Assembly (NCBI GenBank): GCA_963707025.1
Contig: CAVPOM010000006.1
Coordinates: 544,001 to 608,000 of the forward strand
Direction: 5' to 3'
Source of the DNA: an uncultured Verrucomicrobiae bacterium
GTDB taxonomy: Bacteria > Verrucomicrobiota > Verrucomicrobiia > Limisphaerales > Palsa-1400
Length of the DNA stretch: 64,000 bases
Below the pieces are notes generated by a model that had not been told where the DNA came from, ran no database searches, and saw only the letters and a program-made list of their open reading frames with translations. Within the stretch, counting starts at the first letter, position 1, and every line of letters starts with the position of its first letter. A program made the translations under genes and the position numbers. Of this stretch, positions 24,441-43,612 are shown one piece after another.

Positions 24441-24537
24441 CCGGCGCAATTGGCGGCGGGGCTTGCACCCAAAGCACGCCAACCAACCCGAATAATCTTT
24501 GGCCCCCGCCCCTTCCCCCTTACATTCGCGAGCGAAA

Positions 24538-26241
24538 ATGTCGAAGATGTTGAAATCATCCGGTGGGATCGGAGCGGCCACGCTGGCCAGCCGGGTGCTG
24601 GGCCTGGTGCGCGAACAGTTCTTTGCCGCTTTCATGGGGACCACTGCCATTGCGGGGGCGTTTCAATTCGCCTTCATGATTCCCAATATGTTCCGGCGCC
24701 TGCTGGGGGAAGGGGCCTTGACCGCGGCCTTCATCCCCATCTTCAAGGCCAAGGAAAAAACCGAGGGCGAGGCGGCCATGTGGCAGGCGGCCAACGCCGT
24801 CGTCTCGGGGCTGCTGGTCCTGGCCATGGGCATCGTCCTCCTGGTCATTTTGGCGCTGTCCCTTTTGTTGATCGCGCGAACCTGGCAGCCGGAGACCAGG
24901 CTGATGTTCCAACTGATGCGCCTGATGTTTCCTTACATGTTGATGGCCTGCCTCGGCGCCGTCTTCATCGGCATCCTCAACGCCCGCGGCCGTTTCTTCG
25001 TCCCCGCCCTGAGCGCGGCGATTCTGAACGTCGTGCTCATCAGCGCGGCCGCGCTGGTTTTGTCGTTGGGAAAGGATTATGACGCAAGCCTGCACAAGCA
25101 GGTTTTCATCCTGGCCGGCGCCGTGCTGGTGGCGGGCGTGGCGCAGGCGGCTTACCAGTTGCCGGCGCTGCGGTGCGAAGGATTCCGTTATCGCTGGGTC
25201 ACGCCGTGGCGCGATGCCACGGTGCGGGAAGTGGCCGCGAAAATGATTCCCGGAGCCATCGGCGTGGCGGCCTTCCAAATCAATGTCACGGTCAACCAGG
25301 CTTTTGCCTTTGGCGAGAACGCCAGGATTGTGAGCGAATTCAACTACGGGGTCCGCCTGATGGAACTGCCGCAGGGCGTGTTTGGCTTGTCGCTGGCCAC
25401 CTTTCTTTTGCCCACCCTGTCGGCGCTGGCGGTGGAAAAAAATTTCGGCCAGTTCCGCTCGACGTTGCGCCAGGGCGTCAACCATCTGATTTTTGTCAAC
25501 CTGCTCGCCTCGGTGCTGCTCTTTACCATGGCCGAGCCGATCATCCGGCTGCTCTTTGAGCGCGGGAAATTTGACGCCCTCTCCACCACGCGCGTCAGTT
25601 TTGGCCTGATGTGCCTGGTGCCGGGGCTGGTTTCCTTTTCGCTGGTCAACATTTTCGCCCGGGCCTTTTATGCGCTGCAAGACATCCGGACCCCGATGCG
25701 CGTCAGTGTTTTTTGTCTCGCGGCCAATGTGGTGTTGACAGTGATTTTTCTTTTTGGCACGGACCTGCGGGCCGGGGCGCTCGGCCTGGCCAACAGCCTG
25801 AGTTCCTTTTGCAATCTGGGCCTGCTGGTCTTTTCCCTGCGGAAAAAATTGCGGACCCTGGAAATGGCGGAATGCCTCGCCCAACTGCCGCGCCTGGCGC
25901 TGGCCGGATTGCTGGCGGGTTTGGAGGCCTGGGTTCTCCGCCGGCATTGGACGGCGCAGGCCGGTCATGCCACCCTCCCGCTCAAACTGGGCGAGGTTTT
26001 TCTGCCCATGACCGCGGCCGCGGCCGTTTATTTCCTGCTCGCCCTGTGGTGGAAGGTTCCTTCCGCGCACGAGATCGCCGGTTTGCTGGCCGGGCGCGCC
26101 GCATCTGTCAGGTACCTAATAATGAGCCGCTCCCCCCGTCCGGCCCGCCGGCTTAGCCAGGATAATTCAGCCCCGCGCCCCAACCCGGCGGGGCGGGCGG
26201 GCCGCCCCTGCCGCCCCGGCGCCGGGAAATTTCCGGGTTAG
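24538..26241 (+). CDS. murJ: lipid II flippase MurJ (3' end uncertain; low-complexity tail)
   Basis: SRVLGLVRE, AFMIPNMFRRLLGEGAL, RLMELPQGVFG, LFERGKF, RAFYALQD.RTP. Confidence 0.95.
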   Translation: MSKMLKSSGGIGAATLASRVLGLVREQFFAAFMGTTAIAGAFQFAFMIPNMFRRLLGEGALTAAFIPIFKAKEKTEGEAAMWQAANAVVSGLLVLAMGIVLLVILALSLLLIARTWQPETRLMFQLMRLMFPYMLMACLGAVFIGILNARGRFFVPALSAAILNVVLISAAALVLSLGKDYDASLHKQVFILAGAVLVAGVAQAAYQLPALRCEGFRYRWVTPWRDATVREVAAKMIPGAIGVAAFQINVTVNQAFAFGENARIVSEFNYGVRLMELPQGVFGLSLATFLLPTLSALAVEKNFGQFRSTLRQGVNHLIFVNLLASVLLFTMAEPIIRLLFERGKFDALSTTRVSFGLMCLVPGLVSFSLVNIFARAFYALQDIRTPMRVSVFCLAANVVLTVIFLFGTDLRAGALGLANSLSSFCNLGLLVFSLRKKLRTLEMAECLAQLPRLALAGLLAGLEAWVLRRHWTAQAGHATLPLKLGEVFLPMTAAAAVYFLLALWWKVPSAHEIAGLLAGRAASVRYLIMSRSPRPARRLSQDNSAPRPNPAGRAGRPCRPGAGKFPG

Positions 26242-29225
26242 AGCCATTTCTTGTGGATGAGCCACATCTTGACCAGTTGGGTCAGGACCACGTAACAGAC
26301 CAGCGTGGCCAGCAAAATGGGCCAGAACAGCCAGGGCAGCGCCACGAAGCCGAGCCATTTGGCCAGGGGCGAGCAGGGCAGCCAGGCGGCCACGGCCATG
26401 ATGATCACGGTCGTGATGGTCAGAGGCGTGCTGGCCCGGGCCTGGATGAACGGAATCTGGCGGGTGCGGATGACGTGAATAATGAGAGTCTGGGTCATGA
26501 GCGATTCGACAAACCAGCCGGTGTGAAAGAGGGCCGCGCCCGCCGGGTCCCAGCAGTGGAACAGATCCAACATCACAAAAAACGTGGTGTAATCAAAAAT
26601 CGAACTGACTGGTCCGATGAACAGGATGAAGCGCGAAATCTCCCCCATGTCCCACGGCTGCGGTTTGGCGAGCAGGCGGACGTTGACGTTGTCGGTCGGA
26701 ATGGCGACCTGGGAAAAGTCATAGAGCAGATTGTTGGTCAGAATTTGAATGGGCAGCATGGGCTGATAGGGCAAAAAGGCGCTGGCGCCCAGCACGCTGA
26801 ACATGTTGCCAAAGTTGGAGCTGGCCCCCATGCGGATGTATTTGAGAATGTTGACGAAGACTTTGCGCCCTTCCAGCACCCCCTCCTCCAGCACCATCAG
26901 GTTTTTTTCCAGGAGGATCATGTCGGCCGAGTCCTTGGCGATGTCCACCGCGTTGTCCACCGAGATGCCCACGTCAGCCGCGCGCAAGGCGGGAGCGTCA
27001 TTGATGCCGTCGCCCATGAAGCCGACGACGCGGCCGTTGCGGCGGAGGGCCTCGACGATGCGCTGCTTGTGCGTGGGGGAAAGGCGGGCGAAGACCTGGG
27101 TGGTTTGGACCGCCTGGCCCAGTTGTTCGTCGCTCATGTTTTCCACCGCGCTGCCCAGCACCACCTGCCCGGTGTCCAGGCCCACCTCTTTGCAGACTTT
27201 GCGGGTGACCAGATCGTTGTCGCCGGTCAGTACTTTGACGGCGACGCCGTTGTGCTGCAAGGCGGCGATGGCCCGGCCGGCCGTCTCCTTGGGGGGATCG
27301 AGAAAGGCGATGTAACCCTTGAGAATCAATGCCGCTTCGTCGGCTTTGGAGTAAGCGGCCCGTTTGTCCAGGTTCCGGTAGGCCACGGCCAGCACGCGGA
27401 ATCCGTCGGCGCTCAAATCATTGTATTCCTGGATGAGATCGCCCATCAAAATGGGTTCCATCGGCAGGATTTCGCCCTCGCTTTCAAACTGGGTGCAATG
27501 GGCAAAAACCGCTTCCGGCGCGCCTTTGGTCAGGATCTGGTATTCATGGCCGGGCGTTTCCACGATGACCGACATCATCTTGCGCGAAAAATCGAACGGG
27601 ATTTCGTCCACCTTCCGGTAATTGTCAATGCAAAGTTTCTGCCCGGCCTCCGCATGGCTCAAGACCGCGCGATCCAGCACGTTCTTCAGCCCGGTCTGAA
27701 AATGGCTGATGAGGTAGGCATCCAGCAAGACGGGGTCGCTTTGTTTCTTGAACACGTCGCAATAGATTTCCAGGATGACGTGATCGCGCGTCAGCGTGCC
27801 GGTCTTGTCCGTGCAGAGCACGTTCATGGCGCCGAAGTTCTGGATGGAATTGAGGCGTTTGACGATGACTTTCTTCCGGGCCATGGCCAGCGCCCCCTTG
27901 GACAGGCAGACCGAGACGATCATGGGCAGCATTTCCGGCGTCAAACCCACCGCCACCGCCAGCGCGAACAGAAATGCCCCGCCCCAGTCATGCCGGCGGC
28001 TTTTTTTCAATTCCGCCGGGTAAGCGTCCTCCAGCAGCAAGCGGTTGAGCCGGAAATCATGGCGGCCCGGGTGCTGCAGGCGCTCCTGCGTTTCCGGCCC
28101 CAGCCGGATGCCCTGGAAACGGTTCCCGTCGTAGAGGGACGGCCCGGAAACAATCGTGTTCAAGTTGGAAACGAGAAACCCGGCCAGCTCAGCGCTGTTG
28201 CTGGGTGAGAGTTGCCAGGCGGCCAGGGACGCGCGGGCGCCGGGGTCCAATTGCCCGCTCAAAAAGGCGGAGACCGGGTCGGCTTTGGCCGCCAGTTTGC
28301 CAGCCAAGGAGGGGAGTTTGACCAGGTCATCGGGCGCAATCTCCGAGGGCGATTTGCTCAAAGCGTTGATGAGAAACACGGCCGGGACCATGACCAGCAT
28401 GAAGGTCAGCATCAGGTAGGTGAATTTTTTGATCCCTTTGTCGAAGTTGGTCTCGATCGTCTGCATCGTCATGCTGCTGGCGATGCCCCCCAAATAAGTG
28501 CGGGGGCCGGTCTCCACCACCACCGCGTGCGCCGTGCCGCTTTCCACGCTCGTTCCCAGGAAGCAGAGGTTGGCAAATTCCAAAGGCGAGATGTTTTCCC
28601 GCGTTTCCCGCGGGTCAAACTTTTCCACCGGCAATGATTCCCCCGTCAGCGTTGCCTGGATGATGAACAAATCCTTGGCCGTCAGAATCCGCACATCCGC
28701 CGGAATCATGTCGCCGGCGCATAATATGACAATGTCGCCGGGGACCAGGCGCTGCAAGGGGACTTCGGCGGGAAGGCCGTCGCGCAGGGCGGTGGCCGTG
28801 ACCTTGATCATCGCCTTCAACTTGGCGGCGGCGGAGTCGGCCTTGGATTCCTGGATGAAGCGCAGGCCCACACCGAGCACGACCATGGCCACCATCAGCC
28901 AGGCGCCGACGAAATCGCTGGTCTCCTGGGCGGTGGAAAAGCTGATGGTGGCCAGAACGGTCAACAGAATGACCAGCGGATTGCGCACGGCGTGGAACAG
29001 GCGGGTGGCCCAGGTATGACGTTTCTCGGTGGAAACTTCATTGGGACCCACGCTGGCCAGGCGCTCCTCCGCCACCGCTTCGGTCAACCCTTCCGGGCCG
29101 GTTTCCAGCTTGCGCAACGCTTCCGCCGCCTCCATCCGGCCCGCTTCCACCAATTGCGCGGAGACCCGTCCGCTGGCGGGCTTGCGTTTTGGCGGCGGCG
29201 CCGCAGTGTTGCTTTGGTTGTTCAT
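26238..29225 (-). CDS. mgtA: Mg2+-transporting P-type ATPase with 120-aa insertion
   Basis: LTGESLPVEK, AVGLTPEMLP, CTDKTGTLT, GDGINDAP, SSNFGNMFS, GWFVESL.TQTLIIH.IRT. Confidence 0.95.
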   Translation of the reverse strand: MNNQSNTAAPPPKRKPASGRVSAQLVEAGRMEAAEALRKLETGPEGLTEAVAEERLASVGPNEVSTEKRHTWATRLFHAVRNPLVILLTVLATISFSTAQETSDFVGAWLMVAMVVLGVGLRFIQESKADSAAAKLKAMIKVTATALRDGLPAEVPLQRLVPGDIVILCAGDMIPADVRILTAKDLFIIQATLTGESLPVEKFDPRETRENISPLEFANLCFLGTSVESGTAHAVVVETGPRTYLGGIASSMTMQTIETNFDKGIKKFTYLMLTFMLVMVPAVFLINALSKSPSEIAPDDLVKLPSLAGKLAAKADPVSAFLSGQLDPGARASLAAWQLSPSNSAELAGFLVSNLNTIVSGPSLYDGNRFQGIRLGPETQERLQHPGRHDFRLNRLLLEDAYPAELKKSRRHDWGGAFLFALAVAVGLTPEMLPMIVSVCLSKGALAMARKKVIVKRLNSIQNFGAMNVLCTDKTGTLTRDHVILEIYCDVFKKQSDPVLLDAYLISHFQTGLKNVLDRAVLSHAEAGQKLCIDNYRKVDEIPFDFSRKMMSVIVETPGHEYQILTKGAPEAVFAHCTQFESEGEILPMEPILMGDLIQEYNDLSADGFRVLAVAYRNLDKRAAYSKADEAALILKGYIAFLDPPKETAGRAIAALQHNGVAVKVLTGDNDLVTRKVCKEVGLDTGQVVLGSAVENMSDEQLGQAVQTTQVFARLSPTHKQRIVEALRRNGRVVGFMGDGINDAPALRAADVGISVDNAVDIAKDSADMILLEKNLMVLEEGVLEGRKVFVNILKYIRMGASSNFGNMFSVLGASAFLPYQPMLPIQILTNNLLYDFSQVAIPTDNVNVRLLAKPQPWDMGEISRFILFIGPVSSIFDYTTFFVMLDLFHCWDPAGAALFHTGWFVESLMTQTLIIHVIRTRQIPFIQARASTPLTITTVIIMAVAAWLPCSPLAKWLGFVALPWLFWPILLATLVCYVVLTQLVKMWLIHKKWL

Positions 29226-29302
29226 TCCTTCACAACTGCCGGCGGCGAATAAACCACAACCTCCTGCCAAAGGTCACGGTTAAAATACCTTGATTTGCGT
29301 GG

Positions 29303-29330
29303 TTGACTCGCGGCGGGGCGGCGGTATGTT
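29303..29330 (+). promoter_or_regulatory. candidate sigma-70 promoter for the rpmH operon
   Basis: TTGACT, 16-nt spacer, TATGTT. Confidence 0.4.
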
Positions 29331-29398
29331 CTCAGGCTCGGAAGCGCGGGGTCGCCGTGGCCGGGCTGTTGCCCCCGACGCGGGGCAATTTACAATAT

Positions 29399-29519
29399 GA
29401 GACCTCTGCAAAACGCGCGTCCACGATTGTAGCGGCGGTCTATGACCGCCGCAAACCAGGGGAAATAACGCCACGGCGACGGTCATAGACCGCCGCTACA
29501 GGCGGTTTGCAGAGGTCTC
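29399..29519. mobile_element. MITE/REPIN: TIR GAGACCTCTGCAAA, internal REP doublet, AATAT flanking direct repeat
   Basis: GAGACCTCTGCAAAAC...GTTTGCAGAGGTCTC; TGTAGCGGCGGTCTATGACCGCCG and its inverse inside; AATAT at 29394-29398 and 29520-29524. Confidence 0.8.
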
Positions 29520-29532
29520 AATATACGAAAAC

Positions 29533-29670
29533 ATGAAACGCCAGTATCAACCGTCGAAAATCCGGCGCAAACGCCAGCACGGCTTTTTGAATCGCAACTC
29601 CAAAAAAAGCGGGCGCGCCATTTTGGCCAATCGCCGCCGGGTCGGCCGCAAACGCCTCACCCCCGTTTAA
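29533..29670 (+). CDS. rpmH: 50S ribosomal protein L34 (below ORF-track cutoff)
   Basis: [45 protein letters not shown]. Confidence 0.97.
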
Positions 29671-29676
29671 CCCGCC

Positions 29677-30048
29677 ATGCCTGGCGACTCTCCCGCCCCC
29701 TTGGGCTTCCCGCGTTCCAGCCGCTTGAAGCGGCCAGGCGAATTTGCGCGCGCGCGCGCGCAAGGCCGGCGCCTGATTTGCGGCTGCCTGATTGCCAATG
29801 TCCTGCCGCGCCCCGGCCGGCTGGCGGCGCGGCTCGGCGTGGTGACGGCCAAGACGGTGGGCAACGCGGTGGCGCGCAACCGGGCGCGGCGGCTGCTGCG
29901 CGAGAGCTTCCGCCTGCACCAGCACGAACTGGCCGGGCCGGTGGATTTGGTGCTGGTGGCCCGCCCGTCCATCGCGGGCAAGAAGCTGGCGGAGGTGGAA
30001 CGCGATTTTTTGCGCGTCCTGCGGCAGGCCGGGATCGGAGGCCCATGA
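29677..30048 (+). CDS. rnpA: ribonuclease P protein component
   Basis: [28 protein letters not shown]; synteny. Confidence 0.95.
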
Positions 30049-30416
30049 ACATCGGACAACGGATTTTGATTTTGCTGATTCGCGGTTATCAGGCGGTCCT
30101 TTCGCCGGCCCTGGCGGTTTTTTTCGGCCCGGCGGCGCGGTGCCGTTACACGCCCTCCTGCTCGCACTACGCCCGCGAGGCGATCAGCCGGCACGGCGTC
30201 CTGGCGGGTGGGGTGTTGGCAGCCAGGAGACTTTGCCGCTGCCACCCGTGGGGAGCGTCGGGCGATGATCCCGTGCCGTCTTCCCCTCTTAATCTTAATC
30301 CTAATCCTAATCTTAATCTCCGTACAACTGCACCAGGATTGGGATTAAGAGGATTAAGATTAAGATTAAGATTAGGATTAAGAGCGAACCCAAATCACCC
30401 CGGGCATGGACCGTAA
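30045..30416 (+). CDS. yidD: membrane protein insertion efficiency factor YidD with repeat-derived tail
   Basis: [32 protein letters not shown]. Confidence 0.93.
30286..30384. repeat. inverted hexamer microsatellite (TAATCY)n...(RGATTA)n inside yidD
   Basis: CTCTTAATCTTAATCCTAATCC... paired with ...GATTAAGATTAGGATTAAGAG. Confidence 0.85.
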
Positions 30417-32607
30417 ATCACTTCTCATTTTAGTCGTCGCGGTGGCGGTGTTGTTCATGCTCTCGGGGCTGATCAATCATTTATTTCCGCCCCTCCAGGT
30501 GCCGGTCACGCCACTGGCCGCCTGGACAAATCAAACTGCCAATCCGCAAATGGCGCAGGGCGCCGGCACCAACCTCCCGGTTCCAACTCCGGGAGCGGCC
30601 GCAAACCCGCTGCCCGCCGCCGTCTCCAATCCTTCGCTGCCCGAGGTAACGCTGGCCGTTTCCAATCAGGATTTGATCTTTCATTTCACCTCGCGCGGCG
30701 GCGGGTTGAAGGAAATTGCCTTGCGCAATACCAATTATCCGGCGGTGGTCCACAGCCGGCTGCCGGCGCAGGATGAACGCAATTTTGCCACTTTGAATTC
30801 CGGACTCGCGAGTTTTTCCGCGGATGACATCACCGATTTGGGAAGGCTCATGGAGCGATTAAGGCGGCAGTCCGATCCAGTCTCCTCTTTTGTGTGGCAG
30901 AGATTGTCACCTCAGGAGCAATCATTTCTGATGAGCTATCAGCCTTCGGCGCCAACTGCGGCGCAAGCTCCCAGTATGGTGGCTCAAGGTCTTAACAGAA
31001 TAATGGCGGAACCATGCATTTACGAAGTCGAACTGTTTAAAGGGATCCCATTGCGATCTGAAACCAAGGCCCTGATGCAGCAAAATCCGGCCGGCCCCAA
31101 GTTGGCCCACCTCAACCGCCTGCTCCTCGAAGACGCTTTTTCAGTGGAATTGTCCAGGAACCTGAACTCAAGCGCCCCGGTTCCAATTCTGGCCATGCTC
31201 GGTGATAATGCCCTGGGCGACGATAACTTCACCCTCAGCCAGCCATCCAACAACCTCGTTCGCGCCGAGAAGACGCTGACCAATGGCCTGCGGGTGGTGA
31301 AGGAATTTGCGGTGGGCTACTCGGGCACCAATTATCTGTTCACCGCCAACATCCGGCTGGAAAACAATTCTTCGTCCACGTTGCAAATCCCGCGGCGCGA
31401 GGTGGTGGTGGGCACGGCCACGGCCATCGGGCCGCTGGACGATGTGACGACCCTGGGCGCCATGTGGTACAACGGCGACAAATCAACCGACATCGGAGCC
31501 GGCTGGTTTGCCAACGGGATGCTGGGCTGCGTCGAGGGAAAAACGCCCCCGACGATTTATGAAGGCGGCGCCAGCAACGTTGTCTGGGCCGCCATGCACA
31601 GCCAATACTTCGCCCTGGCCGCCATCCCCTCCCGGCCTGCTCCCGGCATTGTCATTCGCAACCCCAGCCTCTCGCCCCCTGACACCAACGGTATGGCCGG
31701 CGGCCAGCGGCTCACGATTACCAACGATTACAAAGGCTACCAAGCCTCTTTGGTTTATCCCGCCACACACCTGGACCCGCACCAGTCGCTGACCAATACT
31801 TTTACCTTTTACGCGGGGCCCAAGGAATACAACGGCCTGGCCAAAATTGGCCATTTCATGGGAAACAACCTGGATCTGGTCATGGGCTTCACCAGCTTTC
31901 TGGGTTTGTTTTCATTCTGCTCCAAGTTCCTGCTCATTTGGATGAACGGCCTCCATGATCTGGGGCTGACCTACGGTCTGGCCATCATCGCCATCACGGT
32001 GATTATCAAATTGGTTTTCTGGCCCTTGACCGCGGCCAGCACCCGCTCGCAAAAGCGGCAGCAGGCCATCGCGCCGCAACTCAAGGCCATCGCGGAAAAA
32101 TACAAGGAGGATCCGCTCAAGAAGCACCAGAAGACGACCGAACTGCTCAAAGAGCACAAGATCAATCCGCTGGGCAGTTGCCTGCCGGTGCTCATTACCA
32201 TCCCGGTGTTCTTCGGATTTTATTCCATGCTGCGCAACGCCATTGAACTGCGCGGCGTCCCCTTTCTCTGGGCGCCGGATCTGACCCGGCCCGACACGGT
32301 TTTCATCATCCACGCCTTCCACAACTTTCCCATCAACCCGCTGCCGCTGCTGATGGGCGCCAGCCAGCTTTGGCAGTCGCATTTGACGCCGCCCTCGCCC
32401 GGCATGGATCCGGGCCAGCAGAAAATCATGCGCTGGATGCCGTTGCTCTTCGTCGGCATTTTTTACAGCATGTCCTCCGGTTTGAACCTCTATTACACGG
32501 TGTCAAACCTGTTGACCATTGCCCAAACCAAGATCACGAAAATGGGCCCCGATCCCGCCGCCAGCCCGGCCAAACTCCCGGCCCCGGCGCCCCAGAAAAA
32601 GAAGTAG
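30406..32607 (+). CDS. yidC: membrane protein insertase YidC with ~123-aa insertion
   Basis: [28 protein letters not shown]...[32 protein letters not shown]. Confidence 0.95.
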
Positions 32608-42381: not shown

Positions 42382-43549
42382 ATGCGGGTCACCCACGTCA
42401 TCACCCGGTTGATCCTGGGCGGCGCCCAGGAAAACACCGTCGCCACCGTGCTCGGCCTGCAAGAGCGGCCCGGCCTGCAAATCACCCTCCTGGCCGGTCC
42501 GGCCGCCGGGCCGGAAGGTTCCCTCGTTTCCGCCTTCCAGCAGTGCCCGCAACTGCTTGCCGTCATCCCCTCCCTGGTCCGCCCCGTCCACCCGCTCAAC
42601 GACTGGCTGACTTTGCTGCGACTGACCAAAATCTTTCGCGCCACCCGGCCGGAACATCGTCCACACCCACAGCGGCAAGGCGGGGATTCTGGGGCGCTGG
42701 GCCGCCCATCGCGCCGGCGTTCCCATTGCGGTCCATACCATTCACGGCCCCTCTTTCGGGCCTTTTCAAGGCGCGCTGGCCAACGGCCTTTTTCGCGGCG
42801 CGGAGCGGTTCGCCGCCCGGTACACCACCCATTACGTCAGCGTGGCTCAAGCCATGACCCGCCAGTACCTGGCGGCCGGCCTCGGCCAGCCCGGCCAATA
42901 TACCCGCATCTTCAGCGGCTTCCCCCTCCAGCCCTTTCTCGACGCTCAAAACGACCCGGCTTGGCGCGCCCGTCTCGGCCTCGCGCCGGACGATTTCGTC
43001 ATTGGCATGATCGCCCGGCTTTTCAAGCTCAAAGGGCATGGCGACCTGCTGGACATCGCCCCCAATCTGGTCCGGCAATGTCCGCGCGCCAAATTCCTTT
43101 TCGTGGGCGACGGCGCCTGGCGCGCCCGGCTGGAGAACCGCGCGCGCTCGCTCGGCCTGGCGCAACACTTTGTTTTCGCCGGCCTGGTCGCTCCGCCCGA
43201 AGTGCCGCGCTACCTCGGCGTCATGGATGCGCTGGTCCATCTCTCGCGCCGGGAGGGGCTGCCCCGCGCCCTGCCCCAGGCCCTGGCTGCGGCGCGCCCC
43301 GTGGCCGCCTATGCCTGCGATGGCGCGGGAGAAGTTTGTATTGACAACGAAACCGGCTTCCTCATCCCGCCCGGTGACCGCGAAACCCTGGCCCGGCGGC
43401 TGCTCCAACTGGCGGCCGATCCCGCTTTGCGGCGGCGTCTGGCGGCGCAAGGACGCCAATTCGTGCTCCCGCGCTTTGCCGTTGAAACCATGCTGGACAA
43501 TCTCTACGCCCTCTACCTCAAACTCAGCGCAAGGGAGGATGGCTCCTAA
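42382..43549 (+). CDS. GT4 glycosyltransferase (+1 frameshift near 42654)
   Basis: HVITRLILGGAQEN; after correction PDIVHTHSGKAG; ARLFKLKGH, REGLPRAL.QALA. Confidence 0.9.
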
Positions 43550-43612
43550 TCTTAATCTTAATCCTAATCCTAATCCTAATCCTAATCTTAATCCTAATCT
43601 TAATCTCAATCC
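43547..43612. repeat. 11-unit (TAATCY) microsatellite
   Basis: Direct hexamer tandem; first unit supplies the GT stop codon. Confidence 0.9.

Follow-up and report, generated by a model that had tools for sequence, protein, structure and literature searches.

A predicted six-helix domain inserted in frame into MgtA, YidC and many other bacterial proteins: a putative mobile coding cassette

Introduction

The nearest known behaviour to the one described here is that of the Rickettsia palindromic elements (RPEs), repeated units which are reported to lie many times, in frame, within unrelated genes (PMC10969869). The present study concerns a domain of about 115 residues that occurs as an in-frame insert in two unrelated membrane proteins, MgtA and YidC, both encoded in a 64,000-nucleotide stretch of DNA (the window) from an uncultured Verrucomicrobiae bacterium (assembly GCA_963707025.1, contig CAVPOM010000006.1, positions 544,001 to 608,000), and also in many other bacterial proteins. 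We propose that this domain family is an in-frame mobile coding cassette, an explanation to which we assign a probability of roughly 0.6.

RPEs (PMC10969869) and the unit described here also have in common that the added peptide is tolerated by the structure of the host protein, and that the carrier genes differ between related species. Unlike RPEs (approximately 150 bp), however, the unit has a length of 350-370 bp, encodes a complete domain with a predicted fold, which is conserved as a protein across several phyla, and contains neither a palindrome nor inverted repeats. Moreover, the copies have diverged much further from one another (at most 60% protein identity), and none of those in this genome is non-coding.

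A second comparison is offered by inteins and other Hint domains, which are likewise selfish coding inserts, placed in frame within conserved genes and tolerated by the host protein. In contrast to these, the domain has no Hint motifs, junction nucleophiles or signs of splicing in its sequence, and is presumably kept in the mature protein. Lineage-specific insertion domains also resemble it, in that a conserved enzyme or transporter has an extra folded module in one of its surface loops, but these are usually private to one host family, whereas the domain is present in more than 60 unrelated families.

Results and Discussion

Homologous inserts in MgtA and YidC

The two host genes, their inserts and the putative target copies are as follows:

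26238..29225, minus strand: mgtA, magnesium-translocating P-type ATPase (host 1); start taken as the first ATG, the open frame reaching 29270
27993..28352, minus strand: mgtA insert, 120 amino acids (aa); domain copy of the older "type 2" subfamily, between transmembrane helices M3 and M4
30406..32607, plus strand: yidC, membrane protein insertase (host 2), with PF02096 and PF14849; gene order rnpA-yidD-yidC-jag-like
30802..31173, plus strand: yidC insert, 124 aa; domain copy of the younger "type 1" subfamily, in the periplasmic P1 domain
30793..30801, plus strand: left target copy, Leu-Asn-Ser codons TTGAATTCC; insert-free congeners have a single TTGAATTCC in the DNA alignment
31162..31170, plus strand: right target copy, Leu-Asn-Ser codons CTGAACTCA; six of nine bases as in the left copy, the three differences being synonymous

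MgtA scored 1100 bits with TIGR01524 (cut-off 610.75), in two stretches, the first of which ends near residue 308 and the second of which resumes at 426; the Pfam families E1-E2_ATPase, Hydrolase and Cation_ATPase_C also match. YidC was identified by PF02096 (172.4 bits, cut-off 35) and PF14849 (55 bits, cut-off 24). An earlier inspection of the letters and open frames (the sequence-only reading) had placed a 120-aa insert in MgtA at 27993-28352, and these limits agree with 15 insert-free orthologues, which read INGLTK|HDW uninterrupted. The start that it gave for the YidC insert (30802) was also correct; the end lies at 31173, 3 nt beyond the 31170 then proposed. The resulting 124 aa are exactly what is missing from four congeners (67-86% identical, C-terminal part), which read NFAT|LNSK without interruption at this position (site 1).

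The inserts of MgtA and YidC align over 113 aa with 35% identity and two gap positions (BLASTP, E=1e-20), which confirms the nearly gapless one-third identity first estimated by hand. Their Smith-Waterman score is 167, compared with 28.0 +/- 4.9 for shuffled sequences (n=2000; z=28.5); none of the 2000 shuffles reached 167, so that the similarity is significant. Judged by these alignments, the two inserts are homologous. The motifs that had been listed as common to both coincide with conserved columns of the family alignment.

The distribution of the two inserts was examined in 41 relatives; all of the relatives compared in this study are draft or metagenome-assembled genomes. The mgtA gene was found in 26 of them, and in 11 of these orthologues the insert is located at the identical point, whereas the other 15 lack it to the residue. 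The carriers represent four genera: the genus of the window (6/6), g4 (3/3), g8 (1/3) and g3 (1/3). In a FastTree phylogeny of MgtA from which the insert had been removed, the 11 carriers constitute a single clade (support 0.925), which points to one old insertion event; afterwards, either the gene would have been exchanged among lineages or its paralogues would have been sorted. The G+C content at third codon positions (GC3) of the copy (0.80) is close to that of its host (0.81). Over 55 pairs, the ratio of nonsynonymous to synonymous substitution rates (dN/dS) was 0.08-0.50 for the insert (mostly about 0.27) and 0.04-0.16 for the flanks (about 0.09). These ratios indicate a translated insert under constraint, which is about three times looser than that on the pump itself.

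In P-type ATPases the loop between M3 and M4 faces the periplasm. A model of the whole MgtA protein, of moderate quality (predicted local distance difference test, pLDDT, 73), places the six helices of the insert between helix 260-290 (M3) and helix 414-450 (M4), and the copy is best explained as an old passenger in this periplasmic loop.

The situation in YidC is different in age. The gene was detected in 40 of the 41 relatives, and the site-1 insert (residues 133-256) is present in this genome only (1/40). A search of a public collection gave 40 YidC matches, and none of the ten closest, which were aligned (66-84% identical outside the insert), has the site-1 insert. One of the 40 does carry the domain, at the site used by congener G004, which has an independent copy at a second YidC site, after LTNGY. 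The GC3 of the YidC copy is 0.59, as against 0.77 in the rest of yidC. A metagenome contig joins position 30801 to 31174, skipping exactly 372 nt, as expected of an empty yidC allele; this support is weak, since it comes from a single contig of depth 3 with 36 letters on the shorter side. The YidC copy is best explained as a later arrival in the periplasmic P1 domain, confined to this lineage among the relatives seen.

These data also bear on the possibility that the insert is ancestral in its host families or in old paralogues and was precisely lost in most lineages, without any insertion. MgtA proteins with and without the insert do coexist within single genera (g8 and g3), and short flanking repeats could favour precise deletion. 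Such a history is nevertheless very improbable. The carrier MgtAs are one derived clade within insert-free ones, and neither insert is universal among its orthologues (11/26 and 1/40). For YidC the idea is contradicted by the single carrier among 40 relatives and by the ten aligned public sequences; in addition, the GC3 of this copy is unlike that of yidC, and one and the same domain is found in unrelated hosts.

A confident fold without a named family

The domain of the YidC insert was modelled with AlphaFold2 from a 43-sequence alignment, which gave six helices with high confidence (mean pLDDT 94.3; predicted template modelling score 0.88). In the model, a bridge between residues 10 and 117 places both ends of the domain side by side. 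As modelled, the domain is an undescribed, self-folding helical unit of about 115 residues.

The view that the module belongs to no named family was upheld: neither insert matched Pfam-A or NCBIfam at E<=1. When 43 family members were scanned singly against Pfam, eight weak matches appeared (best E 0.02), with no family matched by more than one member. Foldseek found nothing in the PDB at E<=1e-3 with the domain model, and the best PDB sequence in a profile search had E 0.46. The best of 48,161 chains compared with VIA-align was a phosphomannose isomerase (Z 4.7, under the meaningful level), and a look-up in the ESM Atlas gave no usable match. A literature search, beyond whose reach most subscription journals lay, retrieved no description of the domain or of its behaviour. 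A predicted complex of two domain copies scored 0.00; it was computed without controls and is evidence neither way.

Death-fold domains (DD, CARD, PYD) are similar in being six-helix bundles of about 90-115 residues with neighbouring ends, and their chains account for approximately 15 of the 50 best VIA-align rows, at Z 2.6-4.0, which is below the level that the tool regards as meaningful for helical domains. The domain has no sequence relation to them, and Foldseek gave no hit at the threshold mentioned above.

The size of the insert, close to that of mini-inteins, and its location in frame in essential genes might suggest an intein-like or other removable sequence, spliced from RNA or protein. 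This is scarcely credible. Identity as an intein is contradicted by the sequence, in which Hint blocks and junction nucleophiles are absent: the junction residues vary, with no Cys, Ser or Thr as first residue and no terminal His-Asn plus nucleophile. No Hint or intein family was matched, including by the eight weak Pfam matches among the 43 members. Furthermore, the changes along the unit are those of an evolving protein, one for which a separate fold is predicted with confidence, and no RNA structure was detected.

Copies in this genome

An iterated hidden Markov model (HMM), built from both inserts, was run against the genome itself (6.96 Mb in 18 contigs, 88% complete) and against its relatives, and the hosts were tabulated. 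In this genome the search converged on 14 copies in 12 stop-to-stop frames:

YidC: one copy, periplasmic P1 domain
MgtA: one copy, M3-M4 loop
Multihaem cytochrome c: two copies, sites A and B; a frameshift is needed relative to an intact 459-aa relative
BSP-type peptidase lipoprotein: two copies
GH95-like glycosidase: one copy
CHASE2 adenylate cyclase: one copy, within the CHASE2 domain
TIGR03663-like GT-C: one copy
TMEM260-like GT-C/TPR proteins: two copies, one in each of two adjacent genes
TssG, type VI baseplate: two copies, within PF06996
148-aa open reading frame (ORF): one copy, N-terminally cut

The 148-aa ORF begins at position 15 of the domain model and has IS3-like OrfA and OrfB directly upstream (C18:117272-119115); it is the remnant of a carrier gene into which this insertion sequence had moved. 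The two-copy cytochrome c is split into two overlapping frames (C6:718346-719768); relative to the intact protein P0005, the frameshift lies near C6:719262-719278, just before the second copy, and is either an assembly error or a genuine break.

The presence of copies varied among congeners. For the cytochrome, site A alone is occupied in G003, site B alone in G002 and G004, and both in G000 and G005. For five other carrier genes of G001, G003 and G004, the orthologous position in this genome is unoccupied; one of the five encodes a POT transporter whose first loop holds the insert. This variation, together with the 14 copies, bears out the suggestion of the sequence-only reading that the module is mobile or repeatedly recruited.

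Distribution and host range

A profile search of 1.84 billion cluster representatives returned 4,856 proteins at E<=1e-3, of which 2,852 reached E<=1e-10 and 198 reached E<=1e-30, with up to eight matched stretches in a single protein. Within the order of the window's genome, the domain was detected in 38 of 41 sampled genomes, with 7-14 matches in each congener and 1-8 in other genera. Of 300 genomes sampled evenly from the remainder of the phylum, nine were positive (five of them from one family), a figure that may be an undercount because at most 14 candidates were scored per genome. The distribution is patchy. Scanning of GTDB species genomes with the exact peptide pattern LNR[LR]LLEDA yielded 275 relatives. 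The record titles were mostly of Verrucomicrobiota and otherwise of Planctomycetota, Acidobacteriota (Aminicenantes, Terriglobales, Blastocatellia), Nitrospirota, Kiritimatiellae and Abditibacteriaceae; this taxon list depends on the exact pattern and on the titles, a few of which (Klebsiella, Akkermansia and Bifidobacteriaceae bins) look mislabelled.

Pfam scans of 83 and 75 carriers, combined with precomputed annotations, revealed more than 60 host Pfam families, to which compartments were assigned from the usual location of each family. Examples are:

Transporters: MFS, POT, sugar transporters, PTS EIIC, ABC, MMPL, ClC, SSF, EamA, MscS (C-terminus)
Envelope biogenesis: MurJ, LptC/D/E, Wza, SecDF, PorV, GT-C enzymes, prepilin peptidase
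Periplasmic enzymes: DUF1080 hydrolases, peroxiredoxins, HtrA, GDSL lipases
Cytoplasmic proteins: ECF sigma factors, P-II, NACHT NTPase, RNA ligase, N6 DNA methylase, uridine kinase
Further cytoplasmic proteins: KaiC-like ATPase, Ser/Thr kinases, DNA ligase LigA

The hosts are therefore not confined to one compartment: TssG, ECF sigma factors, P-II, LigA and others stand beside periplasmic proteins. The domain had originally been regarded as periplasmic in general. This does not hold, given the two copies inside cytoplasmic TssG in this genome and the additional cytoplasmic hosts elsewhere, and the domain is thus not a periplasmic module. In many hosts the match to the host-family profile is split in two by the insert, which places the cassette inside a fold and not between domains. 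The alignments demonstrate that the domain has entered loops of many unrelated proteins, cytoplasmic as well as periplasmic, precisely and in frame, and that insertion occurred independently at two sites of one gene, yidC.

The most constant carriers in the order, and the largest group among 115 matches, are TMEM260-like (DUF2723, PF11028) GT-C/TPR proteins of about 1300 aa, in which the domain has a fixed place, with the membrane domain on one side and the TPR region on the other. Human TMEM260 is reported to be a protein O-mannosyltransferase (PMC10214176). These glycosyltransferases may be the original home of the domain or merely its oldest host.

Phage proteins are among the carriers. A homologue of P2 tail protein I (P0190) contains a copy, and three IMG/VR loci were found with the exact peptide pattern, one of them in a phage tail-like gene region, where an 802-aa protein (contig L215, 2351-4759) has one copy. 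Phages could carry the cassette between hosts. The YidC insert gave no match in GenBank plasmids and phages (tblastn). The domain was also observed within large proteins of the RHS-repeat, TcdB and SpvB types of uncultured Verrucomicrobiota (L177, L179).

Host range is also where a second explanation can be assessed, namely that the domain is a functional accessory (an interaction, localization, regulatory or quality-control tag) which has been recruited repeatedly by illegitimate recombination and has no mobility of its own. Many hosts do act on the cell envelope (YidC, MurJ, LptC/D/E, Wza, GT-C enzymes, MMPL, SecDF), and retention has been long in MgtA (11 orthologues, four genera), in TssG and in the TMEM260-like GT-C/TPR family. 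The hosts as a whole, however, have no compartment or pathway in common, since periplasmic proteins are joined by sigma factors, P-II, DNA ligase, a DNA methylase and uridine kinase, and the insertions are located in mid-fold loops instead of at domain borders.

Junctions, nested copies and subfamilies

Eleven pairs of filled and empty sites, a small sample chosen from alignable cases, were compared at their junctions. Target duplications were clear in five pairs, weak in two, and absent or unreadable in four, with lengths of about 5 to 12 bp. In the clear cases the last two to four target residues are repeated 3' of the insert (LNS/LNS, TNGY/TGY, AP/AP, IG/IG and LLAS/LLS); the AP/AP duplication is identical at the DNA level (GCGCCGG, 7/7 bases). 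Duplications of variable length would fit target-primed (retro-type) or other integration machinery.

Copies were also found within copies. In a TIGR03663-like GT-C protein of G001, a type-1 copy is nested in the resident type-2 copy, and five proteins present the order N-terminal part, full copy, C-terminal part; one of them (P0285) was read by residue and four were identified by HMM coordinates only. In P0285, an NAD-dependent DNA ligase (LigA), residues 376-600 correspond to model positions 1-40, then 1-115, then 56-115.

A tree was built from 68 copies that represent 29 host families; in it, the TMEM260-like copies cluster as a single clade. A second group comprises older inserts (MgtA, CHASE2, GH95, TIGR03663, POT), and a third is a star-like clade of species-specific inserts, including the YidC copy, those of both cytochrome sites and the YidC copy of G004. 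Codons at identical residues are shared more often in this young clade (0.58 versus 0.44). Its GC3 is 0.59-0.66, compared with 0.69-0.77 in the hosts, whereas the old copies match the GC3 of their hosts. Additional conservation of synonymous sites at the unit ends was not found; such conservation is uniform along the unit.

Weighing the mobile cassette against its alternatives

Several observations speak against mobility of the unit. At the DNA level, terminal inverted repeats were sought in both inserts and not found, nor were hairpins or RNA structure, the RNA fold being no better than that of shuffles (z=0.16). No mobilizing gene or enzyme was identified. A transposase of the RAYT type would fit poorly, given the lack of hairpin ends and the presence of target duplications. 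A nucleotide profile (nhmmer) of 13 copies from this genome recovered only the 14 coding copies (next match E=0.006), which implies that the genome holds no intergenic or out-of-frame relics. Recent transfer is likewise not apparent: in the large collection, the sequences closest to the YidC copy reach only 60-61% identity, so that no recent donor was seen, and in the order sample no copies in different hosts exceed 60% identity. Six of the 11 junction pairs have no clear duplication, and three of the five clear duplications differ at synonymous sites, beyond what is expected of a very recent event. The insertions may therefore be older than their narrow distribution suggests. Alternatively, and more speculatively, only copies with diverged flanking repeats might escape precise deletion. 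Finally, in the TMEM260-like glycosyltransferases the domain is always present and is inherited vertically, purifying selection acts on the MgtA copy (dN/dS of about 0.27), and polar residues such as D25, N65 and N105-R106 are conserved across the family. The last two features indicate that the protein could do something.

Selection on the MgtA copy, conservation of polar residues across phyla and the absence of transposon hallmarks in the DNA speak for a functional tag. Yet nesting would break the resident copy of such a tag, and target duplications, carrier genes that differ among congeners, and young copies with a common, foreign-looking GC3 are all at odds with recruitment without mobility. 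We consider the tag explanation, the chief rival, unlikely, though deserving of some weight. Of the two possibilities originally put forward, a selfish coding element or a tag for localization or interaction, the evidence leans towards the former, on account of the duplicated targets, the nesting and the distinctive base composition of subfamilies, and the latter is left with this smaller share. The two can both be partly true.

If the domain family is a mobile cassette, the unit would be a DNA segment of about 350-370 bp, extending from approximately four codons before a conserved Phe to 1-3 codons past ELSR[ND] and encoding a compact domain of six helices, the first residue of which is adjacent to the last. 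Placed in a surface loop, such a domain would leave the host fold intact. Trans-acting machinery would probably insert the segment as DNA, at staggered cuts, and only sense, in-frame insertions in loops would survive selection. Most copies would then be tolerated passengers and not working parts. Selection would preserve the ability of the domain to fold, since misfolding of the insert would harm the host protein, and such harm could by itself explain a dN/dS below 1. The family would also cross between phyla, and its occurrence extends to phage tail proteins.

A bolder version of this proposal, to which we give somewhat less than even odds as a whole, is that these copies represent a new class of bacterial mobile element, a "domain transposon", which spreads as an in-frame, self-folding domain without inverted repeats, leaves target duplications of variable length, forms subfamilies in bursts, crosses phyla and nests in itself, and which has seeded thousands of proteins, the essential YidC, MurJ, LigA and LptE among them.

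Were the mobile cassette confirmed, a sizeable unannotated part of the "extra" sequence in proteins of environmental bacteria would trace to one self-spreading unit. It would count among the rare bacterial mobile elements that persist because their translation does no harm, and would be larger and far more widely spread than the RPEs. The insertion sites would provide a natural catalogue of permissive positions in transporters, insertases, secretion components and enzymes, useful in protein engineering, and the domain itself a ready-made, well-folding insertion module. The entry of domains into the middle of proteins would, moreover, become testable, since filled and empty alleles of one site exist in close relatives. 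At the very least, a domain family of thousands of members merits a name and a model for genome annotation.

Neighbouring features

The murJ gene (24499-26241) adjoins mgtA and has no domain copy here; MurJ proteins of other bacteria carry one, either internally or at the C-terminus. Between yidD and yidC (30286-30384) there are inverted hexamer arrays, (CTTAAT/CCTAAT)n followed by (GATTAA/GATTAG)n, and the same array recurs at 43545-43606 (13 matches, 0 expected). In contigs of peat and soil metagenomes, the hexamer stretch reaches summed depths of hundreds to thousands and has many loose ends, which indicates a widespread repeat. Downstream of the two-copy cytochrome c and an iron-sulphur protein, a 645-aa membrane protein (C6:720528-722465) contains a middle stretch which, by eye, resembles a cyclic-nucleotide-binding domain.

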